The notes beneath the pieces are model-generated. The model was not told where the DNA came from. It made no database searches and saw only the letters and a program-made list of their open reading frames with translations. The position numbers were made by a program, and so were the translations under genes. From IMG/VR virus record IMGVR_UViG_2925939204_000008: a stretch of 20,678 nucleotides of DNA. One strand, written 5' to 3'. The stretch comes from a virus. Lineage: Duplodnaviria; Heunggongvirae; Uroviricota; Caudoviricetes. Below are positions 4,737 through 20,678 of the stretch, piece by piece. Position 1 is the stretch's first letter. The number at the start of each line of letters is the position of its first letter.

Positions 4737-4756
4737 TAAAGAAATGTAATAAACGC

Positions 4757-5449: not shown

Positions 5450-5468
5450 CCTCAATATCCCATCCATC

Positions 5469-5491
5469 GGCCACCGAAAGGTGGCTTTTTA
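5469..5491 (+). terminator. Rho-independent terminator after the repressor gene
   Basis: GC stem GCCACC / GGTGGC with GAAA loop followed by TTTTTA. Confidence 0.7.
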
Positions 5492-5502
5492 TTACCTATA
5501 AA

Positions 5503-5540
5503 TTTGCATATATAGCAAATATAACTTGCATATCTCGCAA
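5503..5540. promoter_or_regulatory. Two operator-like palindromes (TTTGC-N7-GCAAA and TTGC-N7-GCAA) upstream of the xis-int operon
   Basis: TTTGCATATATAGCAAA (5503-5519) and TTGCATATCTCGCAA (5526-5540) share the TTGC/GCAA half-sites seen in the cI-cro intergenic region. Confidence 0.4.
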
Positions 5541-5845
5541 TTTAATTTTATCTTTTGTTCCAGACCAACTACAGGATTACAACAAAATCTGGTTGCAACA
5601 CGGTGCATGTGTCGTAAGCAGTCAGTAAATGTCAAAAACGAACAGGCAGGACGCCCACGAAGTAGCCGCCTGGGGCATATGAAGTCCAGGATGATTCGTT
5701 AGCAACAAAAAAGCGCCCTACAGGACGCTTAGCTCTTTAACAATCTGGTCCCCATCAACAAGTAACTGATAACTTGAGGAGACCTTGAAAACGTCAATAT
5801 CACTCACTGGGCAGTAATGCCAAAAGCACCGGAGGCTGGAGCATA

Positions 5846-6151
5846 ATGACCACTTTTACCGACAAAGAACTGATTAAAGAAATTAAAGAGCGTATCAGCA
5901 GCCTTGACGTGCGAGACGATATTGAGCGCCGTGCTTATGAAATCGCACTCCTATCTCTGGAAGTAGAACCAGATGAACGCGAAGCTTATGAATTATTCAT
6001 GGAAAAGCGTTTCGGTGACTTAGTAGATCGTCGGAGAGCAAAAAACGGCGATAACGAATACATGGCATGGGATATGACTCTCGGTTGGATCGTCTGGCAG
6101 CAACGAGCAGGTATCCATTTTTCAACAATGTCACAACAAGAGGTGAAATAA
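5846..6151 (+). CDS. Hypothetical protein (101 aa), translationally coupled to xis
   Basis: ORF with acidic helical composition; stop TAA overlaps the xis ATG (TAATG at 6149-6153). Confidence 0.5.
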   Translation: MTTFTDKELIKEIKERISSLDVRDDIERRAYEIALLSLEVEPDEREAYELFMEKRFGDLVDRRRAKNGDNEYMAWDMTLGWIVWQQRAGIHFSTMSQQEVK

Positions 6152-6501
6152 TGGAGCCATACAGCCTCACACTCGATGAGGCCTGTCATTTTCTCAAGAT
6201 ATCCAGACCGACTGCCATTAACTGGATACGCACAGGGCGTCTTCAGGCAACACGCAAAGATCCCACTAAGAATAAATCTCCTTACCTCACAACACGACAA
6301 GCCTGCATTGCGGCTCTTCAGTCTCCGCTGCATACTGTCCAGGTGAGCGCGGGTGATGGCATAACAGAGGAAAGAAAATGTCACTCTTCCGCAGAGGTGA
6401 AATATGGTACGCCAGTTTCACATTGCCGAACGGTAAAAGATTTAAACAGTCTCTTGGAACAAAGGACAAAAGGCAGGCGACAGAACTCCATGACAAGCTA
6501 A
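6151..6501 (+). CDS. xis: Excisionase / AlpA-like DNA-binding protein
   Basis: [33 protein letters not shown] is a typical excisionase HTH; start chosen at the ATG at 6151; reading frame stays open to 6501, overlapping the int start by 124 nt, so the true end is uncertain. Confidence 0.65.
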
Positions 6502-7541
6502 AGGCTGAAGCATGGCGGGTCAGCAAACTTGGTGAAATACCTGATATAACGTTCGAGGAAGCGTGTGTCAGGTGGCTTGAAGAGAAAGCACATAAAAAAT
6601 CGCTGGACGATGACAAAAGCCGGATCGGATTCTGGCTTCAACATTTCGCAGGAATGCAACTAAGAGACATTACTGAATCAAAAATTTATTCAGCAATGCA
6701 GAAAATGACGAACCGGCGTCATGAGGAAAACTGGAAACTCAGGGCAGAAGCATGCAGAAAAAAAGGGAAACCTGTTCCAGAATACACGCCAAAACCAGCG
6801 TCCGTTGCAACGAAGGCTACGCATCTTTCATTTATAAAGGCCCTACTAAGAGCCGCAGAGCGTGAATGGAAAATGCTGGATAAGGCACCAATTATTAAAG
6901 TGCCTCAACCAAAGAATAAACGGATCCGCTGGCTGGAGCCCCATGAAGCACAAAGGCTGATTGATGAATGTCCGGAGCCATTAAAGTCTGTTGTTGAATT
7001 TGCACTGGCAACAGGCTTAAGACGCTCGAACATCATCAACCTTGAATGGCAACAAATAGATATGCAGCGCCGGGTGGCATGGATAAACCCGGAAGAGAGT
7101 AAATCAAACCGCGCAATTGGCGTTGCGCTGAATGATACTGCATGTCGCGTATTGAAAAAACAAATCGGGAATCATCACCGTTGGGTATTTGTGTACAAGG
7201 AAAGCTGTACCAAACCAGACGGAACGAAAGCGCCAACAGTAAGGAAGATGCGGTATGACGCAAACACAGCCTGGAAAGCGGCGCTGAGACGGGCTGGTAT
7301 TGATGATTTCAGATTTCACGACTTGAGACACACCTGGGCAAGTTGGCTGGTTCAAGCCGGAGTCCCGTTGTCAGTGTTACAGGAAATGGGAGGCTGGGAG
7401 TCTATCGAAATGGTTCGTCGATATGCTCACCTTGCACCTAATCACCTTACCGAACACGCACGGCAAATAGACTCGATCCTGAACCCATCGGTCCCAAATT
7501 TGTCCCAGTCAAAAAATAAGGAAGGTACTAATGATGTGTAA
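6378..7541 (+). CDS. int: Tyrosine recombinase, phage integrase (e14 IntE-like)
   Basis: 387 aa; N-terminus [14 protein letters not shown]; catalytic-type motifs HDLRHTWAS and VRRYAHL; good RBS GAGGAAAG. Confidence 0.9.
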
Positions 7542-7713
7542 CTTATTGATTTTAATGGTGCCGATAATAGGAGTGTAACACGCGATAAATCTTGTGTTCG
7601 GGTCTTCTTCTACGACCTTCGCAACTACCTGATTTAACGATTTTTACGCACACTGATAATCTGGCATTCATCATGCACATGATAAACGCCCCTAAACTTT
7701 AACGGGGTGGAAA

Positions 7714-8937
7714 ATGAAATACAAGCCGGATCAATACATCATATCTGATAGTTACGGAGTTTATTACGTCAGGATTTCAATTCCTGTATGGCTTCGTAAT
7801 GCATTTGGTGGAAGAAAAACTCTCGTCCGTAGTCTGAACACTTCCGATCTTCGTGTGGCTCGTAGGAAGCGTGATGTTATAGCCGACGAATTTCACCACA
7901 TCAGGCAAATTGCAGAGCCGCCAAAACCGGACAGCTTGCAGGACACGATCAGCTTTTTAAAGAGCGTGGCTAAGTACGCGAAAGCTGCCCCGAAAGCATC
8001 AGCTCCGATTATCTACCAATGCCCCTCTCTGAATAAGATGTTAGAGATTTACCTCACGCATAACGCTGATCGCCTGAAAATGGGAACATTAAGCAAGACC
8101 AGAAAAGCCGTTGAACTGTTCCTGAATTACCTGCGAAAGAAGGATGTTGAACTAAACGATATCAACCGTACCACCGTTACAGGCTGGCTTGATCATCTCC
8201 GAGAGACAAAGGCAGTCCAGACAGTGGCTAACTACCTATCAGCAATGGCAAACATTCTCGATCTTGCCTCTTCCCGATACCAGGACGCCCCACCGCTGGA
8301 AACTAACGTGTTCAGGGGGCATAAACTCAACACAGCGCAGAGCCGCCAGAGTTACGAGGCATTCACGGACGAAGAAATTACGAAGCTCATTAGCACGTTT
8401 AACAAGTTAGGAGAGGACGAATTAAGGGATGTGAGCGCCATCGCCGCTTATAGCGGAATGCGCATCAATGAAATAGCCAGTTTGAAATCTGACAATATCC
8501 GTGAAGTTGAGGGGGTGTTATGTTTCGAGGTGACGGAGGGTAAGACACGCAATGCGGCGCGGTTGGTTCCACTTCATAGTGCGATTAGAAAAATGGTTCT
8601 GGAACGCTGCCAGAAGCCGCACAACGGCTTTTTATTCTACCGTGCAAGTGTGACCAAGAGACAGGACGGCAAGCGCTCCTCATGGCACGTAAACCGCTTT
8701 GGACGGCTTAAACGCGATATTCTCCCAGGGCAGGAAAACAAGGTGTTTCACTCGTACCGCCATGCAGTGATCAGTAAGCTAAACGCCGCCGGAGTGGATG
8801 AATCTCGTATTGCCTTGCTCGCGGGTCACTCATTTGGAGAAACTGAGTCTTTCAAGACGTATTCGAAGAGTGTTCCTGAGCGTATTATGAAGGAGTTAGC
8901 GGGGTATATTGAATTAATAAATTACAACGTCCAGTAA
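7714..8937 (+). CDS. int: Tyrosine recombinase, integrase of genomic-island type
   Basis: 407 aa; C-terminal catalytic region with HSYRHAVIS and a downstream Tyr; long N-terminal arm/core-binding region. Confidence 0.85.
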   Translation: MKYKPDQYIISDSYGVYYVRISIPVWLRNAFGGRKTLVRSLNTSDLRVARRKRDVIADEFHHIRQIAEPPKPDSLQDTISFLKSVAKYAKAAPKASAPIIYQCPSLNKMLEIYLTHNADRLKMGTLSKTRKAVELFLNYLRKKDVELNDINRTTVTGWLDHLRETKAVQTVANYLSAMANILDLASSRYQDAPPLETNVFRGHKLNTAQSRQSYEAFTDEEITKLISTFNKLGEDELRDVSAIAAYSGMRINEIASLKSDNIREVEGVLCFEVTEGKTRNAARLVPLHSAIRKMVLERCQKPHNGFLFYRASVTKRQDGKRSSWHVNRFGRLKRDILPGQENKVFHSYRHAVISKLNAAGVDESRIALLAGHSFGETESFKTYSKSVPERIMKELAGYIELINYNVQ

Positions 8938-8941
8938 TTAA

Positions 8942-8961
8942 GGGGGGATTATACATCCCCC
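8942..8961. terminator. Hairpin between convergent int2 and the 92-aa gene (possible bidirectional terminator)
   Basis: GGGGGGAT-TATAC-ATCCCCC stem-loop; no strong U-tract on either side. Confidence 0.35.
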
Positions 8962-8967
8962 GATAAC

Positions 8968-9246
8968 TCATTTATTCCATTCGTTTTGAATTTGATTCTC
9001 AACTGCTGGCAAAAGGTTATACCAGGAAGCAGAGTTATTCTTAGCATCAACAACAATCAACTTATCATCGCTATCCATCGCTGCCCGAACTTTTCTGGCA
9101 GCCTCTTCAACCGAATAATTCGAATTTACGTACCAGTTCGACTCGGTAACTTTTGCCCAGTTGCCCAAGGCCTTGATAGCATCATGCACAGCAGCATAAT
9201 CTTTGGTTTTGATCAAGTCATAGGTTACAAACAAGTTGTTAGCCAT
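8968..9246 (-). CDS. Hypothetical small protein (92 aa)
   Basis: ORF at the distal end of the minus-strand operon; N-terminal beta-strand-like LFVTYDL. Confidence 0.5.
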   Translation of the reverse strand: MANNLFVTYDLIKTKDYAAVHDAIKALGNWAKVTESNWYVNSNYSVEEAARKVRAAMDSDDKLIVVDAKNNSASWYNLLPAVENQIQNEWNK

Positions 9247-9304
9247 TTAATTCTCTCCAGACATTCAAATGAATAAGCACCGCTATGGGCACTTTGAGAT
9301 ATTT

Positions 9305-9433
9305 TTATTTCTTAGCTTTCTTGGTAGGGATTTTGATAGTTTCAGTTATCGTAGTATCAGGATGTCGTTTAGCTTCAATGGGCTTAACAAACTGACCAGT
9401 TATCGCAGAACGAACTACTGTTTTCTTAGCCAT
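9305..9433 (-). CDS. Small basic protein (42 aa), not in the ORF track
   Basis: ATG at 9433 preceded by GAGGTG with 5-nt spacing; translation MAKKTVVRSAITGQFVKPIEAKRHPDTTITETIKIPTKKAKK. Confidence 0.3.
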   Translation of the reverse strand: MAKKTVVRSAITGQFVKPIEAKRHPDTTITETIKIPTKKAKK

Positions 9434-9468
9434 AAAAACACCTCATCTTGGAGATAAAGAGTGAACTG

Positions 9469-9488
9469 CTTACCCTTTTAAGGGTAAG
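9469..9488. terminator. Perfect hairpin downstream of the 616-aa gene
   Basis: CTTACCC-TTTTAA-GGGTAAG inverted repeat; no U-tract, so terminator function is uncertain. Confidence 0.3.
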
Positions 9489-9584
9489 GGACAAACGAAG
9501 CGGCGTCAAAGAAAAACACCACATATACACATCCTTTACAAACCGAGCGCAATATGTGGTATTCCCATGTGATTTACATCACAA

Positions 9585-11435
9585 TCATCCCCCTGTGGAT
9601 GACTGACCGCTCAAGGCTGATAGCGTAAGGCTACGAGTGAATGAATCCGCACTCGCTTTTGCAGACCAGTCGATATAGTCAGACAATCGAGAAACATCAC
9701 TTTGCAGAGTCAATCCCACTTGTGGATTCACTTGTAGGTTGAATATCGGGTTCAACGTGTACGCTGGCGCGTTGCTGCTGTTGAGCGACATTGCCGAAGC
9801 ACGGAGATTTTCCCCTGAAAGGCTGTATTGATTAGTCGCTGTCCCTGCTTGCTGATTACCAACGCCCAACCAATCCATGATAGCCGGAGCCACTGAACGG
9901 GTATCAAACCCCGTTTTATCCTGAATCCAATCGGCCGTAGCATTCGCAGAGCCACCCACAGCACCATCATAAAGATTTTGAACAGCAGGTTTCTTAGTAT
10001 CGCTAAACCATTCAGGGTGTTGTTGGCGGAGAGTACTGTTAAGATCAGACACTACGCTGGAGATTTCTCCAACAAAGCCCGTCACCTGTTTAGCCAGGTC
10101 GCCTAATCCCTCTCCGAGCATACCAGCAGATTCTGTTATCACTTTGGTGTTCTTCACCAGGTCGTCACCACCATCAGCAAAGCCTTTCATAAAGCCTGTA
10201 AACATGCTGTTATCAACGCCATTCATGAGATTACCCATCGCTACACTCAGATCACCATATGCAAGAGTTTGCTTGATCTGCTCCTCGTTAAGAGTTTGAC
10301 CACTATCGACAAGCTGTTTCAGCGTCTTGTTATATTCTGCACCGTTGTTCATGAACATATCGGTGTAGTGCATCAGGTCATCACCTAAACTCTCTATAAG
10401 CGTACCAATCTGAGCCTGTGACATACCACGGCGTTGCCCTTCATTGGTAACTGCTTGAAGTAGATCAGCAGGACGATCCTGGAAGGATTTAATCTGTTCT
10501 TTGCCCCATCCAAACTTATTCATAATAGAAGTGATACCACCATCGCCGCCTTTCCATTCGCCATTTTTAAACTGGCTATCGTTCAGGGTCATAGCGATAC
10601 GTTCACGTACATCTTTGAAATTGTCCGTCACTTTATCGACATTGGCGCTATCAACTCCGTGTTGCTGCCCCCATGCCACCATCGTTTTAACTACGTTAGG
10701 ATTAGTCTTAACAAGTTCCGATTTTCTAACCAAGTCAAGATTTTCATTCCCTTTGTCAACAATTCGCTGCCCCACTCCGAGGGAGCCAGCCGTTAACGCA
10801 AGGCTTCCTAATACCCCACCACCGACGATAGGAGCATTCCCGCCCTTCTGAGCCTTTAGCTTAGTGGCTGCTGCGGCATACTGGGTACGCTGTGCCTGTG
10901 TCACTTTCGCTTGTTGTGCGGCTTCTCTGCGTAACAGGGTTACACGCTCGCGTATAAGCGCATTCATACGTTGAGAGCTAATATTCCCCTTCGCAAACTC
11001 TTCGCTTTGCTGATGAATATAACGTAACGCTTCATACTGAGATTTAGGATCAAGCCCGTATTTACCTTTAATTCCTGACACTTGTAGCCCTGCATGGCGA
11101 AGTTTAAGCTCGGCTGTCTCTTGGCGCTTCTGTAGCTGCTGCTTCGCTTTCAGATTGGCCTTTTCATCCCTGGCTTTCTGCTTCTCCGCCGCACGTTGGG
11201 CTTTCATTTCCTTCGTATCACGAGGCTTATCATTAAAACGTGCATCATCGGCTTGTTGACGGGCTTTCTGTCTGCGCTGCTTCAGATCCTGGAAGCGAAT
11301 CTTGGGATCGGCTATTTTCTGGAAGTGCTTTTGAAGGTTATCCGCTGCGGCCTTAGCCTCTGCAATACTCCCTTTGTCAACGGTGAAAGTTACGGTGTTG
11401 ACGATCTTACTTGTATTAATCTCAAGCATCGCCAC
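9585..11435 (-). CDS. Large structural-type protein, tape-measure-like (coiled-coil N-terminus, Gly-rich hydrophobic segments)
   Basis: 616 aa; K/R/Q/E-rich coiled-coil N-terminus then APIVGGGVLGSLALTAGSLGVG-type segments; GTG at 11435 or ATG at 11429 as start; function inferred from composition only. Confidence 0.4.
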   Translation of the reverse strand: MAMLEINTSKIVNTVTFTVDKGSIAEAKAAADNLQKHFQKIADPKIRFQDLKQRRQKARQQADDARFNDKPRDTKEMKAQRAAEKQKARDEKANLKAKQQLQKRQETAELKLRHAGLQVSGIKGKYGLDPKSQYEALRYIHQQSEEFAKGNISSQRMNALIRERVTLLRREAAQQAKVTQAQRTQYAAAATKLKAQKGGNAPIVGGGVLGSLALTAGSLGVGQRIVDKGNENLDLVRKSELVKTNPNVVKTMVAWGQQHGVDSANVDKVTDNFKDVRERIAMTLNDSQFKNGEWKGGDGGITSIMNKFGWGKEQIKSFQDRPADLLQAVTNEGQRRGMSQAQIGTLIESLGDDLMHYTDMFMNNGAEYNKTLKQLVDSGQTLNEEQIKQTLAYGDLSVAMGNLMNGVDNSMFTGFMKGFADGGDDLVKNTKVITESAGMLGEGLGDLAKQVTGFVGEISSVVSDLNSTLRQQHPEWFSDTKKPAVQNLYDGAVGGSANATADWIQDKTGFDTRSVAPAIMDWLGVGNQQAGTATNQYSLSGENLRASAMSLNSSNAPAYTLNPIFNLQVNPQVGLTLQSDVSRLSDYIDWSAKASADSFTRSLTLSALSGQSSTGG

Positions 11436-11619
11436 CGCCTTTTTTACTCACCAGATAATTAAGTGCATCTGATACACTACGCCCACGATGTAATAACTGA
11501 CGTAGATGACCGTGATCTATTTCAAGCACACGACACACTCCCGCCAGATTTAATAACTCTTCTGCTGTTTCAGCATTTACGGCGAGGTGAAGCCCCGCGC
11601 TTTTTACAATCACTTGCAT
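11422..11619 (-). CDS. Hypothetical small protein (65 aa)
   Basis: ATG with upstream GAGGAAAG; overlaps the start of the 616-aa gene by 14 nt. Confidence 0.45.
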   Translation of the reverse strand: MQVIVKSAGLHLAVNAETAEELLNLAGVCRVLEIDHGHLRQLLHRGRSVSDALNYLVSKKGGGDA

Positions 11620-11738
11620 TTATCTTTCCTCATTCTGGAAATAAAAAAGGGCGGGAACACTGGGGAGATGTTCCCAACGTTCACACGCCCTATTCAATAG
11701 CCTGATTATTTCCAGCGGGTCAGGCTCCCGCTTGCTCA

Positions 11739-12770
11739 TTAAGCAGTGATGGTGATCTTCACCTGCATACCTAACGCATGGTTCACTGGTAATGCGCTGT
11801 TTTCGTGCATAACGTGGTAAGCATCGCCGCGCTCGCTCAGGTAGCCCCAAGAGTAGTATTCAGCAGGTGCAGCATCGATCAGCGCAAAGTTACCAGAGGC
11901 AGCGCCGTAGATGTTCTGATAAGCATTTGTGCCTTTACTGAACACCGGAACCGCCACCATGTCAGCATCATCTGGCATCTGTGCAAGGATCAGCGGATCT
12001 GTCACTTTAACAATGTCGATAGGCGCACCAGGTAGGCTAAACGTACTAACACCAGGGAGAAGCTCGTGACGCTGGTAGAATAGGTTACGGTCGTCATATG
12101 GCGCTACATACTGGAACGCCTTAGACATACTGTCAGAGAAGCGAATCTGGCTAAATGCAGCAGGTTTAGCGAATACGATCACTCGTTCAATCTGTCCAGC
12201 CAATCCACCTGCGGCAGCCTGAACTTTGTCTAAGATCGCATCAAAATCCTGTGCCGCTGTCGCTGTGCTCACGCTGGCTGTCATTGGCACCACACCGAAC
12301 AGTTCAGCATAAGAGATCAGTAGGTCATCAGTTGCAGGCGTATAAACTTCACCTTTGAACAGAGCACGGGCCAGGTAAGACTCACGGGTACGCAGATAAG
12401 CAATCTTATGTTTGCCAGTGTATTCGGTGTACAGGTCGGTAACGGTTTGCTCGTAGTCCGTTCCCTGCACTCTGCGGCCTTGTACGTCTACAGGTTTAAA
12501 CTCATCTTCCCTTGCAAACCAAGGAATCTCGATAAGGTATTCTTTGCCATTCTGACGCGCGGTAGTGTCGTGGTTTGATGAATAACGGCTCTGCGGGGTG
12601 TTAAACAGGCTGTAGTTATCATCCAGAAGCTGTGTCACCACCACTTTCGGATTCTGAACACCTACCCCGTCGAATAGGTCGAGGGCATTCATAAGATAGT
12701 TACGTTCCGGCAGAGCCTGGAAGATTGGCGCTAAATCGACCATCTCACGCCCAATTGCGATTTTACTCAT
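11739..12770 (-). CDS. Putative major capsid protein (lambda gpE-like size and position)
   Basis: 343 aa (lambda gpE is 341 aa), directly downstream of a ~119-aa gene as in the lambda D-E pair; assignment from size, order and composition, not from confirmed similarity. Confidence 0.45.
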   Translation of the reverse strand: MSKIAIGREMVDLAPIFQALPERNYLMNALDLFDGVGVQNPKVVVTQLLDDNYSLFNTPQSRYSSNHDTTARQNGKEYLIEIPWFAREDEFKPVDVQGRRVQGTDYEQTVTDLYTEYTGKHKIAYLRTRESYLARALFKGEVYTPATDDLLISYAELFGVVPMTASVSTATAAQDFDAILDKVQAAAGGLAGQIERVIVFAKPAAFSQIRFSDSMSKAFQYVAPYDDRNLFYQRHELLPGVSTFSLPGAPIDIVKVTDPLILAQMPDDADMVAVPVFSKGTNAYQNIYGAASGNFALIDAAPAEYYSWGYLSERGDAYHVMHENSALPVNHALGMQVKITITA

Positions 12771-12786
12771 TATTTATCTTCCTTGA

Positions 12787-13146
12787 TTAAGAGGTGAAGA
12801 ATGGACGGCATACGAACCCTTTGGATTCGAGCGTGGTGATAGCTGCGGCGTGATTAGCTGCGTGCAGGTTGTCGGCTTTCAGTGCTACGAAGCTACCAAC
12901 ATTAGGCGCACGTAGGACATTCACGGTTTTACCGTCGCCAGCACTCACGAAATCACTTACCACCACAAAGGCATCATCGCCGGAGGTGTATAGAGCGCCA
13001 TCAGCGCCGATAACATCGCCGCATTCAATATCTGCTGGCAGGTCGAAAACACGGCCTTCTACGACTGCAAAAGAATCAGTGGCGTAGCTCAATACGTCAG
13101 TGAAACTCTTACGAATTGGGAAAAGTTCGGTTAGGTCTACAATCAT
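12787..13146 (-). CDS. Putative head decoration or small capsid-associated protein (gpD-like position)
   Basis: 119 aa, Gly/Ala/Val-rich, immediately upstream of the capsid-like gene. Confidence 0.3.
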   Translation of the reverse strand: MIVDLTELFPIRKSFTDVLSYATDSFAVVEGRVFDLPADIECGDVIGADGALYTSGDDAFVVVSDFVSAGDGKTVNVLRAPNVGSFVALKADNLHAANHAAAITTLESKGFVCRPFFTS

Positions 13147-13358
13147 TGTTGTTTGATTTCCTTGGATTTGATTGCGATCCGTTCCTGCATACTAAGTTGA
13201 GGTGTGTCCTCAGAAGGGAAATACTGGTCTACAGCTTTTTCTATTTCTTCAACGGTACATCCTGCCATTTCAGCCACTTTAGCTATTAACTCAGGATTAA
13301 CTTGAATCACTTCGGATTTGTATTTTAGGATTCGGTCGCGATTGTTTATTAAGAACAT
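13143..13358 (-). CDS. Hypothetical small protein (71 aa), first gene of the structural operon
   Basis: ATG at 13358 preceded by GAAGGAA; stop overlaps the next start (ATGA at 13143-13146). Confidence 0.45.
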   Translation of the reverse strand: MFLINNRDRILKYKSEVIQVNPELIAKVAEMAGCTVEEIEKAVDQYFPSEDTPQLSMQERIAIKSKEIKQQ

Positions 13359-13433
13359 TGTGTTGTTCCTTCGCGTTATAACTGCGTTTATCCTTCCATT
13401 GATAACGGAAGTGTTACATGCAGATTGTTAAAA

Positions 13434-13451
13434 AGGGGCGATTAAGCCCCT
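13434..13451 (-). terminator. Intrinsic terminator on the minus strand between the regulatory and structural operons
   Basis: Minus-strand RNA AGGGGC-UUAAUC-GCCCCU followed by UUUU. Confidence 0.45.
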
Positions 13452-14024
13452 GGAGAATATGCCCTTGTTAGAAAGCATTCTGTTAAAATCATTTTCGTTT
13501 CGGAGGATTATGATGTTAAAGAATGGCTTCTTGAAAAAATGAAGGGCGCAACTGTTACGAATAACAGAAGTAGGATCGCCCGTCATTGCTCCCACTTCAA
13601 AACAGAAGCCCTTCTGTCATGGCGAGAAGTGGGAATGGAATCTCAATATCACCACTGGAATAGTAATAAGAGATTGCCAGCCTGAACGTAACTACCGCTG
13701 ACGGCGTTTATTCAGTCTGACTACATTCATCCTAACGGAATGAATGAGCAAAGAGCGAATGCCCTTTCTGAAAAAGTCGGAGATGCGCGGTGATTGCGAT
13801 GCAATACCAACACAACGAGATATTACATCCCGCGCATTCCTTCGGAACAAACAAGACAAAGAACCAACACTTTCAGAAATAGCATTCAGAGGGAGAGAAT
13901 GCCGCTATGGGAACGGCATTCTCAAGGAGTGCGTATTGACATACGAGGGTGAAGTGATTCGAATACTTACCCTATAACTCATTATGACACATATAGCACA
14001 TAATGTCAAGACATTTAGTAACTT

Positions 14025-14363
14025 TTATGTTATGGCGCATTCTTCCGCGATCTGGATGGAAAGCTCTCCGAGTTCAACGGTGATGTATTGCAGAGAGCAA
14101 GCAAGCTCCTCAAGGTCATTAGCTACACGCCACGCTTCTTCTGGTGTGATCGAACTGCCGTCACGCTGCACCAAACGAGCTACAGACGTTTGCAGATGTT
14201 CAAGGGCAGTGATTGCCTGTTCAGTGTATTGCACCGCTTCCAGAAGCGCGGAGGGCGTTCTCTCACGCCACGCTGCATTAACAAGCTGTAAGGTTGGTAA
14301 ATGCCAGTTGTCGTGGAAAGAGTTAATTAGGGTGTTCACTGTGTCCATAGTTTTATTATTCAT
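14025..14363 (-). CDS. Hypothetical protein (112 aa from the ATG at 14363)
   Basis: ORF track gives 14025..14459; the ATG at 14363 overlaps the upstream stop (14356-14358) and is the likelier start. Confidence 0.45.
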   Translation of the reverse strand: MNNKTMDTVNTLINSFHDNWHLPTLQLVNAAWRERTPSALLEAVQYTEQAITALEHLQTSVARLVQRDGSSITPEEAWRVANDLEELACSLQYITVELGELSIQIAEECAIT

Positions 14364-14739
14364 TGTTTTCCTTGTCGTCAAAGAGAATATCAAACTCTTG
14401 TGTGTGCTGGGATAGCCCCCAGGTTTGACAATACCCAATATAATCGGCGTAATGTTCAAATCCTGCTATTTGCCATTTCTTGAGATGGCTACTATCTATA
14501 ATATATTCGCGTCTGCGTCGTGGTTTGTAATAAACGTTATCCGTTGACGATAGAACATCCTGCAATAGTTCAAACTCTAATCCATTTGGTACTACTGCGG
14601 GATATTCTTTAATAGTTGTCACCATCTCACCAGGAATAGACTCTCGTGCGAGGTCTTGTAGAGAAGAGGTGTATTTACGTTTGCTGATGCGTGTGGCTTT
14701 TTCGATTCTAACAAGGTTACTTCGTTCTTTTCGTCCCAT
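14356..14739 (-). CDS. Hypothetical protein (127 aa)
   Basis: ORF in operon context; basic N-terminus; no recognisable motif. Confidence 0.45.
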   Translation of the reverse strand: MGRKERSNLVRIEKATRISKRKYTSSLQDLARESIPGEMVTTIKEYPAVVPNGLEFELLQDVLSSTDNVYYKPRRRREYIIDSSHLKKWQIAGFEHYADYIGYCQTWGLSQHTQEFDILFDDKENNE

Positions 14740-14843
14740 TCATTCCTCGTAGAGGGGAAACTCCTTGTCTGGTTATAACGTAAACGCCATAGAATATGGT
14801 GAACCACCATAAAGCAGTAATCATAAAAGTTTCCCGATTGTTG

Positions 14844-15305
14844 TTATTTAGTCGTAAGTGTAATGTCGCATCCTTTACCGCGACCAGGTTTGATTAACGT
14901 AGTAGTTAGATAATCATTGCGGCGAAGCTTGCGAATCGCACTGGATACAGTTGCCACACTTATCCCCAACACTATCGCTATTGACTCCTGTTTCACATTT
15001 GTTAATGATGGCAGTGATTCGAGGTGCATTAATACCAGACGTTCCGAAGGAGACAGATTCTTATCGTGAAGATGTGGGGATGTCATTTTACATTCTATCT
15101 CTTTCGGTGGCTTCATCGCTGCATTGAATAGCGTAACAAGAGCATTAGCGTAACTTGATTCACCTCGCTCAGCGTAAACATCTACAAGTTCTTGCGCTTG
15201 TTCGAATGCAACACCTCTTTCAACTTCTGGATTTAATAAACTGGCAAGATGGATGATGTTAAGATCACGTTCGTTGTATTGTTTGGGTATAACCGTTTTC
15301 AGCAT
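14844..15305 (-). CDS. Winged-helix (MarR-like) DNA-binding protein
   Basis: C-terminal wHTH-like LSPSERLVLMHLESLPSLTNVKQESIAIVLGISVATVSSAIRKL. Confidence 0.5.
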   Translation of the reverse strand: MLKTVIPKQYNERDLNIIHLASLLNPEVERGVAFEQAQELVDVYAERGESSYANALVTLFNAAMKPPKEIECKMTSPHLHDKNLSPSERLVLMHLESLPSLTNVKQESIAIVLGISVATVSSAIRKLRRNDYLTTTLIKPGRGKGCDITLTTK

Positions 15306-16039
15306 AAATGTTCTATTTCCTCGTAGATTGGTTTAAGTTTTGGATTCTTCTCTGTGTCCAGGTATCCGTTAATAAGTAGCCATCTGATTTTCGGATGTTG
15401 TGAAACTGGTAGATTCTTTTCAGGATTCTCCCATTCATCCCGATAACCCTCAAGAAAGTTTAAATTAACTGGCTCTATCTTAATATCTTTAGCTGGAATG
15501 GAGGCGGGTTTCTTCGTAGGCATTTTCTTTGGCTTCTCCGGCTTCGGATCTGCTTTGGCCTCTTCTGGCACTGACTGCTGTTTTTCTTCCTCTGGCGCTA
15601 CGTCTTCTTTAGCTTTGCCAAACACGGGATGTTTCAGACAATCTACCCATTCCGGCGCGGAATCACGTTCCATCGCATTACGATCACGTTCAAAGGTGAA
15701 GTTTTGCGGCGTGAGTGGCGTTATAGTCCATTGGTTAGAGCGCTTTGGCTTATTACTGGCGATCAGTCCGATTTTCTTCAACTTTGCAACAATACGTGTT
15801 GCCGTAGCCGAGCTGACACCAATACTTGCACCAAGTTGATCAATGTCATCGTAATAAGTACCGCCCAACTCTATCGCAAAGCGATAATAACGATGGCGCA
15901 TTCTGACGTAAAACTGCTTATCAGCAGGAGACAGGGACTCTGTTACGCCTGTTTTAAGATTGGTGATCCTGGTGCATTCGTTAAATGCGTCTTCGGTGTT
16001 GGTGAAACTAAAAGCCTTACTGTTTATAATGTCAGTCAT
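15299..16039 (-). CDS. DNA-binding protein with lambda O-like architecture (N-terminal wHTH, K/P/E-rich linker, C-terminal domain); possible replication initiator
   Basis: SPADKQFYVRMRHRYYRFAIELGG...GVSSATATRIVAKLKKIGLI resembles the replication protein O N-domain by recall; long low-complexity linker. Confidence 0.4.
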   Translation of the reverse strand: MTDIINSKAFSFTNTEDAFNECTRITNLKTGVTESLSPADKQFYVRMRHRYYRFAIELGGTYYDDIDQLGASIGVSSATATRIVAKLKKIGLIASNKPKRSNQWTITPLTPQNFTFERDRNAMERDSAPEWVDCLKHPVFGKAKEDVAPEEEKQQSVPEEAKADPKPEKPKKMPTKKPASIPAKDIKIEPVNLNFLEGYRDEWENPEKNLPVSQHPKIRWLLINGYLDTEKNPKLKPIYEEIEHLC

Positions 16040-16053
16040 GTTAGGGTGTATCC

Positions 16054-16230
16054 TTATTTGGTAGAACGTTCTCCGTTCTTAATTGATGTGGAAAGTGTGG
16101 TTGCAGCGTCAATTAACATCTCCTGCACTGTTACGCCTCTCGCTCGCGCCTCTTTGAACAAAGTACTAAACACTTCATCCGGCAGTTTTACGAATGTTCC
16201 GGCTGGTTTCTTCTTCTGGATTTCGCTCAT
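16054..16230 (-). CDS. Ribbon-helix-helix (Arc/CopG-like) DNA-binding protein, 58 aa, not in the ORF track
   Basis: ATG at 16230 preceded by AAGGAG; MSEIQKKKPAGTFVKLPDEVFSTLFKEARARGVTVQEMLIDAATTL has a beta-strand then two helices as in RHH repressors. Confidence 0.5.
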   Translation of the reverse strand: MSEIQKKKPAGTFVKLPDEVFSTLFKEARARGVTVQEMLIDAATTLSTSIKNGERSTK

Positions 16231-16248
16231 TTGGTTTCTCCTTCTGGT

Positions 16249-16497
16249 TTATTCGTTGGTGGTGGTTTCAGCCTGTTCAGCTTTCCATTGATCGTAAAGT
16301 TCGATTCCTTTACGCAATCTTTCAGCGTGTTCGAAATATCCTTGCCGTTGTGCGGCTGCTCGCTGGCTGTTTATTGCATTTCGCGTCTGGCTTCCGGCCT
16401 TTAAAGCCTCGAAGACAAGTTCTGGATTAAAATACTTAATTTTGGTTCTCCTTGCGTTAGAAACACAGAAACACCATCCAGGGAGAACGTTAATCAC
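16249..16497 (-). CDS. Hypothetical protein, first ORF of the regulatory operon (start uncertain)
   Basis: ORF track uses a GTG start at 16497; an ATT codon with AAGGAG 7 nt upstream is an alternative. Confidence 0.35.
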   Translation of the reverse strand: MINVLPGWCFCVSNARRTKIKYFNPELVFEALKAGSQTRNAINSQRAAAQRQGYFEHAERLRKGIELYDQWKAEQAETTTNE

Positions 16498-16592
16498 GTT
16501 GCCTGATAGTGCGGTGTAAGTTGGATTGTTTGCGTTAGGCTGGATGCCTGAGATGAGGACGGGATGAATGCTTTCATTACCCTACATCATTT

Positions 16593-16672
16593 ACTTTAAC
16601 ATGAAATGATTTAAGTGTCAACACTTATTTAAATCCCTTTCAAATTATAGCGCATTTCCACGTTGTGATCAA
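16593..16672 (-). promoter_or_regulatory. Two tandem sigma70-like promoters directed into the minus-strand regulatory operon
   Basis: TTGATC (16667-16672) 17 nt TATAAT (16644-16649), and TTGACA (16616-16621) 17 nt TAAAGT (16593-16598), read on the minus strand. Confidence 0.4.
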
Positions 16673-17223
16673 CTCATTCATGTCATCATAAAACGCGGTC
16701 TATCGCTTTCTAACAGGTTTGAAAGCCTGAGAGTTGCAATCCCCTCCCTATCCTCTCAAATTCGCTCTCAGCGCGTCTGGGGCGTTCCGTTTGCGTTACC
16801 GCCGCCCTCTGGCACTTACTCCCGAAACCAATAGCACAACTACTGAGGGATAACGTTAGTTATCAGGATAGTAGGTGATGGTATTGGATTGAGGCTGGAT
16901 GAACTGGAGCCATCAGCGACCAGTGAATCCTTAGCCGTGGGCTAACTTTGCATGGATGAATGCGGAGCATGGAAGACAGGCAGAAGTTATGCTGAAAGAC
17001 ATTGCGCACACGGCGCATAGCTTCTGTGCCTCGTTTCACGAGGGCGAAGCCCTGGCACAATCACAGACAGATGCGCTACGCTGCGTCGTGAGCGGCTGAC
17101 CGAGTAGCCCCCAAAGGCGAATCAGGTCACTTGCCAGGCGATACGCGCCAGCAAAGCGAATCTTTAACAAGATCTTCTAAAAGCTCTCTTTTAGAGATCG
17201 CTTTTAGAATCTCTTTGTATAGA

Positions 17224-17305
17224 ACATCAATTTGATGTGTAGTTTGCCGATCCATACATCAATTTGATGCGTATCCCATGCATCTATACATCATTTTGAT
17301 GTATA
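17224..17305. repeat. Three 18-bp direct repeats at exactly 32-bp spacing, each with an internal palindrome ACATCAA(t)TTGATGT
   Basis: ACATCAATTTGATGTGTA (17224-17241), ACATCAATTTGATGCGTA (17256-17273), ACATCATTTTGATGTATA (17288-17305). Confidence 0.8.
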
Positions 17306-18061
17306 ACGCCCCCAACTAACTCTGATTCATCCATGCAACAACACTAAGAGTAACGAGAGGTTATTCCTATCAAAACAACACGATAATCATAGCTAAGCCT
17401 ATCTTAAATGACAGGTAAAGATTGCCGTTGTTACATGGGTAAAGTTGCCATAGTCAGCAAGATAGTAACCATCACTCACTTTGCGTAAAGCCTTGCGCCA
17501 TGCGGCTCACAGCGATCATTGTCCACAATGAGGAGTTTCATGACAGGTGCAATGTGCTGAACGAGTTTTCTAAAATGAAACGATGTTTCTTTTTCATGCC
17601 AAAATCCACCAATTGATTAGCATTCTAATCATTTCATTACACACTCAGTTTCAAGTGCATAAACTCCGCATAATTTGTGCATACAGGCAGGTTAGCCCCG
17701 CCCTCGCCTAACAACCTTACATTTATCAGATTTAAATCAATGAGATAGACAATAACCACACACAAGCATTGGTAGTGTGATGTTCCGCTGTTGCCGCTGT
17801 TCTTCGTGCAGAGTTGAGGATTTGGCAATGTTCAAACACATGTTTATAAATGCCAACATCATGATTTTGTTCAAGATATTTAGAGGAGAAGAAATTTTCG
17901 ATCTGGAGGCGGCCCTGGAGGTCGTTAAGCACTGGACGCAATCGCGCCATTTACCACACACAAGACAGTTCGATTTTTGATCATTTATATTGCAACTTAC
18001 TGAAATTGATCATATTGTTTGTTTCGTTGAGTTTAGATGTGTGTCTTTATGGGAGGGTAAA

Positions 18062-18622
18062 TTGAACAGAGCAGTAGTGTTAGACGAACAGCAAGCCAAA
18101 GCGATCAGGGAGTGGCTAAACGCTCATAACAAGAGCCTGATAGCTGACGTTACGTTAATGATGCAAGCCGCTGTACTGCGTGTGGGGGATGCCGTAGCGT
18201 TACGCTTCGACGAAGTGATCAACGGTGAGATTGACATAGAAGAACAGAAGACAGGGAAGCGTAAAGCCCTCACTCTCCCTGCTCCAGTGGTGCAGATGAT
18301 TGCTCGTCGCCGTGCTGAGTATCCGCATGATGTGCATGTGTTCAGAAGCCAGCGTAACCGATCAATGAACAAGCAAGCGCCTGTACGACGCGAAGAAGTG
18401 AGCAAGCAGATCGCAGAGGCCGCTAAAGCTATCGGTATTCATGGCACTGTATCAGCTCACAGCTTCCGCAAAGCTGGCGGGAATGCCATCTACAAGCGTT
18501 CAGCAAACAACATCGCTTTAGCTATGACCGTGCTTAATCACAGCAACATCACTGACACCAGGCGCTATCTGGATTTAGACAAGCAAGCCGTTAGCCGTGT
18601 GATCAATGAGATGGACTTATAA
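18062..18622 (+). CDS. Small tyrosine recombinase, catalytic domain only (FimB/FimE-sized or truncated integrase)
   Basis: ORF open from 17990; likely start TTG at 18062 after GGGAGGG, or GTG at 18041; motifs ALRFDEV, HSFRKAGG and TRRYLDL fit the R...H-x-x-R...Y catalytic pattern. Confidence 0.65.
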   Translation: MNRAVVLDEQQAKAIREWLNAHNKSLIADVTLMMQAAVLRVGDAVALRFDEVINGEIDIEEQKTGKRKALTLPAPVVQMIARRRAEYPHDVHVFRSQRNRSMNKQAPVRREEVSKQIAEAAKAIGIHGTVSAHSFRKAGGNAIYKRSANNIALAMTVLNHSNITDTRRYLDLDKQAVSRVINEMDL

Positions 18623-18632
18623 GGAGATACGC

Positions 18633-18830
18633 ATGAAACGCTTGCTTGTGCTGACGCTGACAGTAATGCCAGTCCTGGCGAATGCCGGACAGATAACCCT
18701 GATTCTCAGTGACGAACAGGAGACAGACAACGCGAAGATTTGCGTTTATTCCAACGCCAACTTTACGGAGACAGTGACGCTCAGGCCGTCGCAGCAATGC
18801 CGCTACACAATGACCTTTGAAGAGGAGTAA
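18633..18830 (+). CDS. Small secreted or periplasmic protein with signal peptide (65-aa precursor)
   Basis: ATG at 18633 with AAGGAGA 5 nt upstream and 10 nt after the recombinase stop; MKRLLVLTLTVMPVLANA signal-like N-terminus; two Cys in the mature part. Confidence 0.5.
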   Translation: MKRLLVLTLTVMPVLANAGQITLILSDEQETDNAKICVYSNANFTETVTLRPSQQCRYTMTFEEE

Positions 18831-18888
18831 CAATTGAAGAAGGAAGACAAGCAGATAACCAGCGTGGTCTGGTGCGGTGTATAAGTAA

Positions 18889-19368
18889 TCACTGCTTGGA
18901 ATCACGTAGGATCAGAGACAATATCCACCACCAGCGACGACGCAGCCAACTAACATCACTGAACAGCTTCCCATCAGATGTAGTAACATACACCCCTCCG
19001 CGATGATGCACCTTATTATGGTGAGCCTTATTGATGAATGGTACTTCTAAGATCATTTCATCACGGGCTTTTAATCGGCGTGGCAACATGGGGCTGATCA
19101 TGTATTCATCACAATGTTCGTTAGAACAATCGCTAAGGCGTCCGCTGGCGGTTACTATGCCCGCCGAACTTATCGTCACATCATGGGCGCTTTTGTTGGA
19201 AACATAAATTCTGTCTTCATACTGATCGCAACCTAAGAAAAGGCGTAGATCTGTTCTGGATTTTAATAGCTGGAAAATGGATAGTGCAAACCCAGCCCAT
19301 GCGGCAAGCATGGTCAGATTATCAACATTAAGCAACCAATCTATCAAAGTTCCATCCCTTGAGAGCAA
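18889..19368 (-). CDS. Hypothetical membrane-associated protein (start uncertain)
   Basis: Hydrophobic helix LTMLAAWAGFALSIFQLL near the N-terminus; Trp/Arg-rich C-terminus WLRRRWWWILSLIL; TTG start at 19368 or ATG at 19311. Confidence 0.45.
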   Translation of the reverse strand: MLSRDGTLIDWLLNVDNLTMLAAWAGFALSIFQLLKSRTDLRLFLGCDQYEDRIYVSNKSAHDVTISSAGIVTASGRLSDCSNEHCDEYMISPMLPRRLKARDEMILEVPFINKAHHNKVHHRGGVYVTTSDGKLFSDVSWLRRRWWWILSLILRDSKQ

Positions 19369-19571
19369 AGATAATTAGCAATTCCTTGATGCTGTAAGTC
19401 AGTCAATTGGAAGTAGGAATCGAGTACGATTATGACTTGCGTGGCATTATCAGCATGAACAGAACCAGGGGTATCAGGAGGAAGCGAACCATCAAGGATG
19501 GCAGTAAAGTAACCCGATGAGATAGAGACTTTCAGGAAGCAATTGGGTAAAAATTCGTAACGTTCACTCAT
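19344..19571 (-). CDS. Hypothetical small protein (75 aa from the ATG at 19571)
   Basis: ATG at 19571 preceded by GAGGTGG; ORF track gives a longer version to 19658. Confidence 0.4.
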   Translation of the reverse strand: MSERYEFLPNCFLKVSISSGYFTAILDGSLPPDTPGSVHADNATQVIIVLDSYFQLTDLQHQGIANYLCSQGMEL

Positions 19572-19734
19572 AACCACCTCATTTTCAGATTGTTTCTGCA
19601 AAGCGTACATTACGAATTTTATTCTTTTACCGCATTTCAAACCAAATGACAATTCCATTGAATCAGTTGAGGATTTTAACCCTCACCGAAGATAACATAA
19701 CCTCAAAATGTCTATCGCTTCATTGAGGAAATGT

Positions 19735-20508
19735 ATGTCTACTGAAAATTTTGTCACCTTCTGGTTAGCCAGAGCCGATCTTCCATACTTTCTTGAACCC
19801 CATGAATTTTACGTTTCTGAGGCAAGGCGGCGGCTTCTCTCTCAGTTTGGTGATTTAGAACAAGAAGCAGAGAAGAGAGAACAACAGTTTTTGGAGACTA
19901 CTGCTGAGTATTTTGATCAAGATAACGATGACCCAATGGCGGCCTACGAGCAAGCCTATCATGAGGGAATTTATTATGTACGGTCGCTTCTGGAGATGCA
20001 AAATACCGTATTGTTGGCGTTGACAGCAGGTATGTATCATCAGTTTGATAAAAAACTAAGAGAACATACTATCAAAGAGCTAAGTAATTGGTGTGAAAGA
20101 GAATTGATTACCCCCATGATCTGGAATTTAACTTTCCATCAGCTAATTGATTTGCTCGAATGGATTGGCCTCACAATCAATGGAACCGAATACGGAGAAA
20201 GGATAAAAGCCTGTAACTTGGTGGTAAACGTATACAAGCATGGAGACGGCCCTGCACATCAAACACTATCAGTTGATCATCCTGAGTATTACCCAAACCC
20301 CACCGATGTTAGAGGCACGCAGATTGTCCCTAACCATGACGATTTACATGTCTCAGAAGATCAATTTGTAGATTTTGCTAACGCAATAACTGCTTTCTGG
20401 AACGCGGTTCCAGAAAATTGTTACTACTCAGATCTTAGAGAAGAACCCAAATGGTTGGATAGAGTTGTGACAAGATTCGAAAAAAAGCATAGGGGCAATA
20501 GGGGCTGA
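19735..20508 (+). CDS. Hypothetical protein (257 aa), function unknown
   Basis: ATG at 19735 with GAGGA 6 nt upstream (ORF open from 19708); no recognisable motif. Confidence 0.5.
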   Translation: MSTENFVTFWLARADLPYFLEPHEFYVSEARRRLLSQFGDLEQEAEKREQQFLETTAEYFDQDNDDPMAAYEQAYHEGIYYVRSLLEMQNTVLLALTAGMYHQFDKKLREHTIKELSNWCERELITPMIWNLTFHQLIDLLEWIGLTINGTEYGERIKACNLVVNVYKHGDGPAHQTLSVDHPEYYPNPTDVRGTQIVPNHDDLHVSEDQFVDFANAITAFWNAVPENCYYSDLREEPKWLDRVVTRFEKKHRGNRG

Positions 20509-20519: not shown

Positions 20520-20678
20520 TCAAAACATCAAGTTTGCAGCTCGCGCCAACTTGATTTCCTCTCGCTCTTCCTGCTTCTTAGCAAGCCAGGCTTTCCCCTC
20601 TGGTGTTGCCAGGAATTTACGGGCGTGAATCTTACGGTTGTTGCGCTTCGTGGCTGCTTTTTGGTTAGCTTTTGACAT
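20520..20678 (-). CDS. Small basic protein, possibly partial because the ATG is the last three bases of the window
   Basis: Minus-strand MSKANQKAATKRNNRKIHARKFLATPEGKAWLAKKQEEREEIKLARAANLMF with stop at 20520-20522; upstream context not visible. Confidence 0.3.
   Translation of the reverse strand: MSKANQKAATKRNNRKIHARKFLATPEGKAWLAKKQEEREEIKLARAANLMF

Follow-up and report, generated by a model that had tools for sequence, protein, structure and literature searches.

Integrative elements of Enterobacterales with their own capsid, decoration and tape-measure genes: putative satellites of Stephanstirmvirinae-type phages

We analysed the viral record IMGVR_UViG_2925939204_000008 (Caudoviricetes), a stretch of 20,678 nucleotides (nt) hereafter called the window, and found that it harbours what, judged by its gene content, is a compact mobile element that encodes the functions for its integration and replication, with an incomplete set of virion genes. 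It is very likely an intact member of a conserved family of mobile elements and not a prophage remnant. In addition, comparisons with phage genomes suggest that it is probably a helper-dependent satellite of virulent myoviruses of the Stephanstirmvirinae type, i.e. relatives of phAPEC8, ESCO5 and phi92. Sequence comparisons place the element between position ~7552 and the tRNA-Thr gene thrW, ~600 bp past the end of the window, for a total of ~13.7 kb; two relatives, found in Escherichia coli XYEH3934 (at thrW) and E203449 (at leuX), settle this extent. The initial annotation of the window, made from the sequence alone, had drawn the bounds at 7666-17317 (~9.6 kb). The left end is actually a thrW-derived attachment (att) site at 7552-7623, and a right end at 17317 cuts the element just after its iterons, before a conserved non-coding block (17476-17635), a recombinase gene (18062-18622), the cargo genes and thrW. 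That annotation had the gene content right, but it lacked the link to a helper, the module of small recombinase and cargo, and the combination of a structured leader and a terminator before the capsid operon. It had also hesitated between a heavily deleted lambdoid prophage and a satellite-like element; the comparative evidence presented below supports the latter, whereas dependence on a helper is a feature that we infer.

The virion genes form a morphogenetic operon on the minus strand, in the order 71-residue protein, gpD-like decoration protein, HK97-type capsid protein, 65-residue protein and tape measure. The major capsid protein (343 residues, 11739-12770) belongs to the lambda gpE class, in keeping with the 'E-like capsid' of the initial annotation. 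It matches the Pfam profile Phage_cap_E (PF03864) with an E value of 8e-15 (55.1 bits, cutoff 22.9), and structure prediction gave an HK97 fold. The AlphaFold model, built from a 27-sequence alignment, has a predicted local distance difference test score (pLDDT) of 79 and a predicted template modelling (TM) score of 0.78. With this model, Foldseek retrieved the solved HK97 capsids of PhiTE, ICP1, Bas63, Sf14, YSD1, Chi and lambda (gpE), with E values from 1e-16 to 1e-9, and a fold search of BFVD returned mostly unnamed entries, which were of no help in placing the capsid protein in a clade. The capsid gene is the most strongly constrained gene, with a ratio of non-synonymous to synonymous substitution rates (dN/dS) of 0.04-0.08.

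Directly upstream of the capsid gene, a gene on the same strand (12787-13146) codes for a 119-residue protein that the initial annotation had labelled 'D-like'. The label holds at the level of the predicted fold: the AlphaFold2 model (pLDDT 81) has its best Foldseek matches, of moderate strength, with the decoration proteins of Bas63 and Sf14, over the full length (E value ~4e-3, probability 1.0, TM score ~0.6), followed by YSD1, P21 SHP and lambda gpD, with TM scores of 0.55-0.62 across the set of decoration proteins. Sequence searches with the 119-residue protein gave no relatives outside the element family. We consider it on the basis of the model to be a gpD/SHP-like decoration (cement) protein.

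The 616-residue product of the last gene of the operon (9585-11435, minus strand), previously described as 'tape-measure-like', is indeed a tape measure. Its match with phrog_16051 ('tail length tape measure') has an E value of 2e-98, and the protein is a full-length orthologue of the Stephanstirmvirinae tape measures, aligning end to end with gp244 of Escherichia phage ESCO5 (32% identity, E value 5e-88). It is 46 residues shorter than gp244, and the extreme N- and C-termini are both conserved. The dN/dS of the gene is 0.14-0.20. In RefSeq, the prokaryotic genome annotation pipeline (PGAP) names the protein 'cell envelope integrity protein TolA', presumably due to its Lys/Ala/Gln/Glu-rich coiled segment, and this name hides the tail gene from annotation-based screens.

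Two small genes complete the operon. The first gene (13143-13358, minus strand) codes for the 71-residue protein, which is conserved across the family (dN/dS 0.12-0.25). The 65-residue protein (11422-11619, minus strand), likewise conserved, is encoded in a frame that overlaps the start of the tape-measure gene, and we propose it as a candidate tape-measure chaperone; profile searches detected no homology for it. Other than the tape measure, no open reading frame (ORF) of the element matched terminase, portal, protease, other tail families (sheath, tube, baseplate) or lysis proteins in Pfam, PHROGs, NCBIfam or PADLOC, in line with what had been noted from the sequence alone.

Phages of the Stephanstirmvirinae are virulent, and their genomes carry direct terminal repeats (PMC12695924). 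We searched 50,697 phage records with the tape measure using tblastn, and only 134 records were matched, all of them Stephanstirmvirinae or mislabelled relatives of ~145-155 kb. Three divergent tape-measure variants of the family, with 27-30% mutual identity, each matched exactly the same 134 genomes. In ESCO5 and in Klebsiella phage 05F01, the tape-measure gene is found between the tail chaperones and the baseplate genes. In 21 sibling loci of the element, the gene that follows the tape measure codes for a Dit-like tail protein (PF21821, E value 4e-29; e.g. L026 13191-13904 and L057 11566-12279), whose identity is 57% with ESCO5 gp243 and 59-62% with the gp135 proteins of Justusliebigvirus/phi92. 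The position of this gene after the tape measure is the same in the siblings and in the phages.

As for the capsid, the profile of the family matched the ESCO5 and 05F01 capsid proteins with E values of 3e-16 and 2e-15, respectively, and its best PDB match was phi92 gp124 (69.8 bits, full length). BLASTP searches with the capsid and decoration proteins of the element against ESCO5 and 05F01 returned nothing or a weak match (E value 4e-4), so that the homology of the capsids was seen with family profiles only. The sequence relationships thus point to a strong link through the tail and a weak one through the capsid. Furthermore, within the family the degree of identity of the tape measures does not follow that of the capsids, as expected if tail genes are exchanged or track different helpers.

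Related loci are widespread. The relatives of the capsid protein correspond to 46 clusters among 5.8 billion proteins, all from Enterobacterales, and besides E. coli the loci of the family come from Klebsiella, Enterobacter, Citrobacter, Kluyvera, Buttiauxella, Scandinavium, Pantoea and Erwinia. A common core was found in 29 IMG/VR and 12 GTDB loci, composed of the integrase, the tape measure, the 65-residue protein, the capsid and decoration proteins and the proteins of 71, 112 and 127 residues, usually with the small recombinase. The replication modules are exchanged as cassettes, with a helicase-type module in some relatives. All core genes are under purifying selection (dN/dS 0.04-0.4 overall, below 0.5 in every case), and all ORFs of the element in the window are intact. 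No portal or terminase gene was found between the element ends in any examined locus, for ~50 related loci.

Eight complete E. coli genomes, including that of AR_0128, contain positions 7666-17317 of the window in their chromosomes with 100% identity. In AR_0128 (locus L001), the region is part of a tandem array of foreign DNA that extends from yagP'/paoD-side sequence to thrW beside proA, with thrW at 25594-25669, corresponding to window coordinates 21259-21334. In E. coli XYEH3934 (L004), the element stands alone between yagP'/paoD and thrW, with no neighbouring prophage. Its genes are in the order integrase, 92-residue protein, 42-residue protein, tape measure, 65-residue protein, capsid, 119-residue protein and 71-residue protein, and after a gap 112-residue protein, 127-residue protein, a DEAD-box helicase that replaces the O-like module, 1.5 kb of non-coding DNA, the 186-residue recombinase, cargo and thrW. 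In E. coli E203449 (L005), the core is found at leuX with an integrase of 48% identity, and the small recombinase and cargo adjoin the tRNA gene. Of 5,426 complete E. coli genomes searched with blastn, 337 yielded a capsid homologue, which was chromosomal in all cases. One of these that we inspected, strain 08_3323, has the same layout at thrW and a 'phage baseplate protein' after the tape measure. The capsid gene matches two places in AR_0128 (NZ_CP021722.1), and a second, divergent member of the family appears to be present elsewhere on that chromosome.

Other forms of the family were also found. A metagenome contig of 13,624 bp from ENA (L006) has a 55-bp terminal overlap, and it codes for ParA, a Dam/HTH_7 protein and the small recombinase, with no large integrase; by its sequence, this is a circular-looking, plasmid-like form of the family. 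In a Pantoea-like lineage (L009 9566-11108, also L010), a Kiwa defence system (KwaA/KwaB) is found instead of the tape measure, and the capsid, decoration and 63-residue protein genes are kept. We also considered identities with named elements of E. coli O157 Sakai. Sp2, at thrW, is unrelated, its psu, sid and primase genes marking it as a genuine P4-like element, and the proposal that the leuX variant is SpLE5 was rejected, with the leuX variant being present in only one of the 5,426 genomes.

The capsid operon is preceded by a conserved non-coding region. Directly after the gene of the 112-residue protein, a near-consensus sigma-70 promoter (13981-14009, minus strand) is composed of TTGACA, a 17-nt spacer and a TG-extended CATAAT (11 of 12 positions match). 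No other part of the intergenic region is as well conserved in the family. The promoter is followed by a structured leader RNA (~560-620 nt; 13359-13975, minus strand), which ends in a conserved terminator made of a GC hairpin and a U-run (13430-13450), ~75 nt before the gene of the 71-residue protein. The minimum free energy of the leader is -213 kcal/mol, compared with -157 +/- 6.7 in shuffled sequences (z = -8.5), and z scores between -4.8 and -11 were obtained for every leader of the family tested, including a 350-nt version that is only ~50% identical. RNAalifold analysis of 13 leaders gave 76 consensus pairs, 23 of them with compensatory double changes, some of which affect the stem of the terminator. 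Many of the pairs are G-U, and in 12 of the 13 sequences the sense strand folds more stably than its antisense counterpart. The 19 promoter-like sites detected overall do not represent an enrichment relative to the 15.5 expected in shuffled sequence; however, the one at 14009-13981 stands out by its near-consensus sequence and its conservation. The two tandem sigma-70-like promoters upstream of the early operon (16593-16672, minus strand; 10 of 12 positions each) are consensus matches only. Another terminator-like hairpin with a T-run is found just after the capsid gene (11652-11676, minus strand). Searches of the window in Rfam returned no family at gathering thresholds and, at E <= 1, only a spurious microRNA match on the palindrome 17160-17224. 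The leader has no Rfam match and could itself be a stable regulatory RNA. We propose that the capsid and tail genes may be gated by termination and read-through.

These features led us to a tentative model, in which the elements may form a new satellite family that replaces the capsid shell and the tail core of the helper, the remainder being supplied by the latter, with an operon controlled by the leader/terminator switch. In such a model, which we also propose with reserve, the helper might provide the portal, terminase, sheath, tube, baseplate and fibres, and the siblings might in addition replace the tube initiator. In the resting state, transcription from the strong promoter would halt at the leader terminator. 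Infection by the helper, or a protein of the element such as the conserved proteins of 112 and 127 residues, might then allow read-through. The element would excise and replicate from the iterons, and its capsid and decoration proteins would form a small shell sized for ~14 kb on the portal and with the assembly factors of the helper, whose terminase would package the element DNA. Finally, the tape measure of the element would substitute for that of the helper in otherwise helper-made contractile tails, yielding chimeric virions as in the case of PLE and ICP1. In PLE virions, the tape measure of PLE is present instead of that of ICP1, and its deletion decreases transduction by 96-99.9% (PMC12987554). 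Tape-measure and chaperone genes are found in all PLEs of V. cholerae (PMC12987554). On this comparison, the tape-measure part of the model has an experimental precedent, and the capsid part has no exact precedent.

A number of observations weigh against a satellite of Stephanstirmvirinae. Excision, packaging and helper dependence are steps that we infer from sequence comparisons. The capsid protein of the element is only ~22% identical to those of Stephanstirmvirinae, and the capsid profile scores PhiTE (57 bits) almost as well as phi92. With such a low identity, assembly on the portal and scaffold of the helper is the weakest point of the model. Every previously described capsid-encoding satellite also encodes a portal, a terminase subunit or adaptors. 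The element of the window lacks the Dit-like gene of its siblings and has ORFs of 42 and 92 residues in its place, and the replacement of the tape measure by Kiwa shows that the gene is dispensable in one lineage. Comparison with the complete genome of ESCO5 for shared packaging-site or promoter DNA gave only chance-level matches of at most 21 nt. Lastly, all the matches in IMG/VR are integrated proviruses and not virion-derived contigs.

Some of these observations speak for a mobile anti-phage decoy island, which is the main rival explanation. According to this rather unlikely scenario, the element would move by its integrase or as a plasmid, and the homologues of the capsid, decoration and tape-measure proteins would mainly poison the assembly of Stephanstirmvirinae heads and tails in a dominant-negative manner, thereby protecting the host population instead of packaging the element. 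Interference with tail assembly is a documented defence strategy of satellites (PMC11364771; Rta in PMC12987554), a Kiwa system can occupy the slot of the tape measure, SieB-type and other accessory genes are found in the cargo slots, no packaging genes were found in the Pfam and PHROGs searches and no packaging site in the comparison with ESCO5. Nevertheless, a decoy would need neither a gpD-like cement protein, which binds assembled shells, nor a full-length tape measure with both termini conserved, nor the syntenic tail-tube initiator of the siblings, and the strong constraint on the capsid gene also argues against it. Moreover, interference and satellite transfer can coexist, as PLE does both. 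Another unlikely explanation is that of a satellite or phage-plasmid of a different, unsampled helper, e.g. a temperate myovirus with a phi92-like tail module, or of portal-less HK97 shells with no classical helper, comparable to encapsulins or gene-transfer particles. In its favour, the capsid shows no specific proximity to that of Stephanstirmvirinae, isolates are over-represented in the phage database, and Rep, the iterons, the resolvase-type recombinase and ParA in L006 are plasmid-like features. Small HK97 elements with no portal have been proposed (bioRxiv 10.1101/2025.06.18.659913). However, the homologies of the tape measure and the Dit-like protein point exclusively or most strongly to Stephanstirmvirinae, and a tape measure has no role without a tail.

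That the element is the decayed remnant of a prophage, either lambdoid or from an unknown temperate phi92-like relative, which kept structural genes by chance, we consider very improbable. It does lie in a tandem array beside a clearly degraded prophage at the thrW hotspot, and most of its genes are 'hypothetical' in PGAP. Nevertheless, ~50 loci from at least 10 genera have the same gene set and size, with two tRNA sites and different integrases among them as well as one circular contig, and the ORFs are intact and under purifying selection. None of the examined relatives has portal, terminase, lysis or further tail genes, and the only phage homologues of the tape measure are in strictly virulent, 150-kb phages. 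The heavily deleted lambdoid prophage envisaged in the initial annotation can be set aside on the same grounds: no full-length relative with portal or terminase was found among the ~50 loci, purifying selection acts on the core genes, and the structural genes are related to those of the virulent Stephanstirmvirinae and not to those of lambdoid phages. No relics of lambdoid genes (immunity, Q, lysis, terminase, portal or tail) were detected in the element or in the ~50 related loci. We thus favour the helper-dependent satellite as the probable explanation.

At its left end, the element has an attL site that corresponds to a split pseudo-thrW (7552-7623), composed of block 1, TGGTGCCGATAATAGGAGT (3' end of tRNA-Thr), a 30-nt spacer and block 2, CTACGACCTTCGCA (14 nt of thrW-internal sequence). 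It was defined by the direct repeats shared with thrW in locus L001. The structure is identical at the clean thrW insertion of XYEH3934 (L004, 8890-8958), and an analogous split is found at leuX in E203449 (L005, 5649-5730). The integrase-proximal att design is thus a tRNA 3' end of 20-26 nt, an unrelated spacer of 30-42 nt and a 14-nt block with full identity to the anticodon-arm region of the target tRNA. This unusual split design is common to the two tRNAs despite integrases that are only 48% identical. Next to attL, and on the plus strand, is the gene of the integrase Int2 (7714-8937), a 407-residue tyrosine recombinase with an N-terminal DUF6538 domain, which matches Pfam Phage_integrase (2e-13), DUF6538 (2e-11) and phrog_1 (9e-36). 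The initial annotation had correctly placed int2 at one end of its island and all the remaining island genes on the minus strand.

Between the integrase and the tape measure, two ORFs are found on the minus strand. One codes for a 92-residue accessory protein (8968-9246; phrog_1090) in a variable slot downstream of the tape measure, which in relatives harbours the Dit-like gene, an EAL-domain gene or others. The other is a 42-residue ORF (9305-9433), annotated by PGAP and conserved in close relatives. On the other side of the leader, the minus-strand region 14025-14739 codes for two conserved core proteins of 112 (14025-14363) and 127 residues (14356-14739), found in nearly all loci of the family (dN/dS 0.2-0.5). 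The replication module (14844-16039, minus strand) is composed of a 153-residue protein (14844-15305), which matches HTH_36, and a 246-residue O-like initiator (15299-16039), which matches DUF6945 and phrog_8102 (replication initiation); this is consistent with the winged-helix/O-like proteins initially proposed. Two small early proteins of 58 and 82 residues (16054-16497, minus strand) follow. The former had been called a ribbon-helix-helix (RHH) protein, a label that finds no profile support. Profile searches with the proteins of 42, 58, 65, 71, 82, 92, 112 and 127 residues returned nothing usable at E <= 5, and PADLOC and NCBIfam gave nothing for them.

Upstream of the early operon, three palindromic 18-nt iterons, ACATCAATTTGATGTGTA, are spaced by 32 bp (17224-17305) and represent a putative origin or operator. 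The iteron block co-varies with the DUF6945 Rep module across loci. The number of iterons differs between elements that are otherwise 99.9% identical, the window having three and E. coli MS6192/MS6193 (L056, 613-726) having four. In the same region, a perfect 14-nt inverted repeat (16948-16961/17325-17338; ~0.006 expected by chance) encloses a segment of 363 bp with the iterons, at a distance of ~700 bp from the gene of the small recombinase. This arrangement might call to mind a fim-like invertible switch; no related locus shows the segment inverted, and we rejected that idea. The most widely conserved non-coding block of the family is found at 17476-17635. It contains no convincing ORF and is 74-90% identical in loci whose neighbouring DNA is otherwise unalignable, making it a candidate packaging or resolution site.

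The small tyrosine recombinase gene (18062-18622, plus strand) codes for a catalytic domain only, of 186 residues, with matches to Pfam Phage_integrase (3.5e-16) and phrog_216 (5e-27). It is found in L004, L006, L009, L012 and other loci, with a dN/dS of 0.03-0.05. A serine resolvase takes its position in nine loci, and this swap suggests that the small recombinase has a role in multimer resolution. The adjacent region (18626-20508) is variable cargo, with ORFs of 152 and 75 residues on the minus strand, which have no matches in Pfam, PHROGs or PADLOC, and one of 257 residues on the plus strand (19735-20508), which matches phrog_19541 (3e-72). At the same slot, relatives carry e.g. a YecR lipoprotein, SieB or IS3. 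The right-end segment (20520-20678, minus strand), with a 52-residue ORF beside thrW, is where the window stops within the element. Its final 157 bp are ~87% identical in L012, L014, L038 and L047 despite their differing cargo.

The left part of the window (1-7541) is a degraded prophage that is distinct from the element. It contains a serine invertase gene (1-552), gp53-like tail-fibre fragments, genes for a tail tube (1156-1512) and a sheath (1512-2651), a YmfL fragment, an XRE/HTH pair, large and small terminase genes that are both broken, and int1 (6378-7541). This prophage abuts the pseudo-thrW att site of the element, which probably served it as a secondary site of integration.

Phapecoctavirus and Justusliebigvirus phages are popular candidates for therapy and biocontrol against E. 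coli and Klebsiella. If our interpretation is correct, a resident satellite that hijacks therapy phages would lower their yield and make treatment a route of gene transfer. The satellites of virulent phages, so far represented by PLE and PICMI in vibrios, would also extend to Enterobacterales. The architecture is new in that a capsid shell and a tail core are encoded by the element itself, with no portal or terminase, which poses the question of how a foreign capsid protein, ~22% identical to that of the helper, would assemble on the helper portal. Models of the SatelliteFinder type miss the family because tail genes are forbidden in them, and any capsid-forming element must have portal and terminase. 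We found no description of the family, or of any satellite of Stephanstirmvirinae, in the literature, of which our coverage was incomplete.

Among known systems, P4-like elements resemble the element in their size (11-14 kb), their integration at tRNA sites (leuX/thrW) by a tyrosine integrase, their cargo/defence hotspot and their ability to be either integrated or in a plasmid state, represented here by the L006 form. The immunity of P4 by CI RNA, in which a constitutive promoter and a terminated structured leader serve as a regulatory device, can be likened to the leader of the element. Unlike P4-like elements, however, the element has no match to Sid, Psu, Delta, Epsilon or the alpha primase in Pfam and PHROGs searches, and it encodes its own capsid protein, whereas P4 resizes that of P2. 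The PICIs also differ, as the element has no AlpA or primase match, uses an O-like DUF6945 initiator and carries capsid and tape-measure genes.

The capsid-forming PICIs (cf-PICIs) are closer, being enterobacterial integrative satellites of ~15 kb with their own HK97 capsids and the tails of helpers, and some carry putative tape-measure genes (PMC12987554, Extended Data Fig. 10). They are defined by at least nine of 11 core components, namely integrase, regulator, primase, capsid, protease, HNH, small (TerS) and large (TerL) terminase subunits, portal, adaptor and connector, with tail genes being 'forbidden' (PMC10085698). The element has only the integrase and the capsid of that list, plus a tail gene, which leaves it outside the cf-PICIs; no portal, prohead protease, TerS, TerL, HNH, adaptor or connector was detected by Pfam or PHROGs in any of its ORFs. 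The statement in the initial annotation that the described families (P4-like, PICI and cf-PICI) carry different structural sets is thus in agreement with the published definition. More broadly, P4, SaPIs and PLE resize the capsid protein of the helper, and cf-PICIs, MulchRoom/MiniFlayer and EPIPs pair a capsid with portal, terminase or adaptor genes.

The EPIPs, satellites of Mycolicibacterium (PMC12822802), likewise combine a major capsid gene with a tape-measure gene and lack most tail genes, and their particles have small heads and altered tails (PMC12822802, bioRxiv Dec 2025). Their gene set differs from that of the element in that it includes TerS, a scaffold, a serine integrase and a head-to-tail adaptor and stopper, and they have an actinobacterial host and a temperate siphovirus as helper. 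PLE is a satellite of a virulent myovirus with a capsid of the lambda-E class, and it is similar to the element in size and in having an integrase and its own replication initiator. Its tape measure is ~20% identical to that of its helper, compared with 32-40% between the element and the candidate helper, and PLE11 in addition encodes a baseplate hub (PMC12987554), where the siblings of the element add a tail-tube initiator. In contrast with the element, which has its own capsid and decoration proteins, PLE reuses the helper capsid and resizes it with the external scaffold TcaP (PDB 8g1r). The two also differ in that PLE has a large serine recombinase, RepA_N, a Vibrio host and ICP1 as helper, whereas tyrosine integrases, an O-like initiator and Enterobacterales hosts are found here.

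Compared with the element, the Stephanstirmvirinae are virulent phages of 145-155 kb with portal, terminase, scaffold, sheath, tube and baseplate genes, all of which it lacks; their capsids are ~22% identical to its own, and the decoration proteins have no sequence similarity. What they share is the capsid class and length, the tape measure (32-41% identity), the Dit-like protein (57-62% identity) and the local gene order of decoration-capsid and tape measure-tube initiator (ESCO5 gp254/gp253/gp244/gp243; phi92 gp124/gp135). Seen against all these systems, the elements would be phage satellites, a kind that is already known, and would represent a new family in which the parts are combined in a new way.

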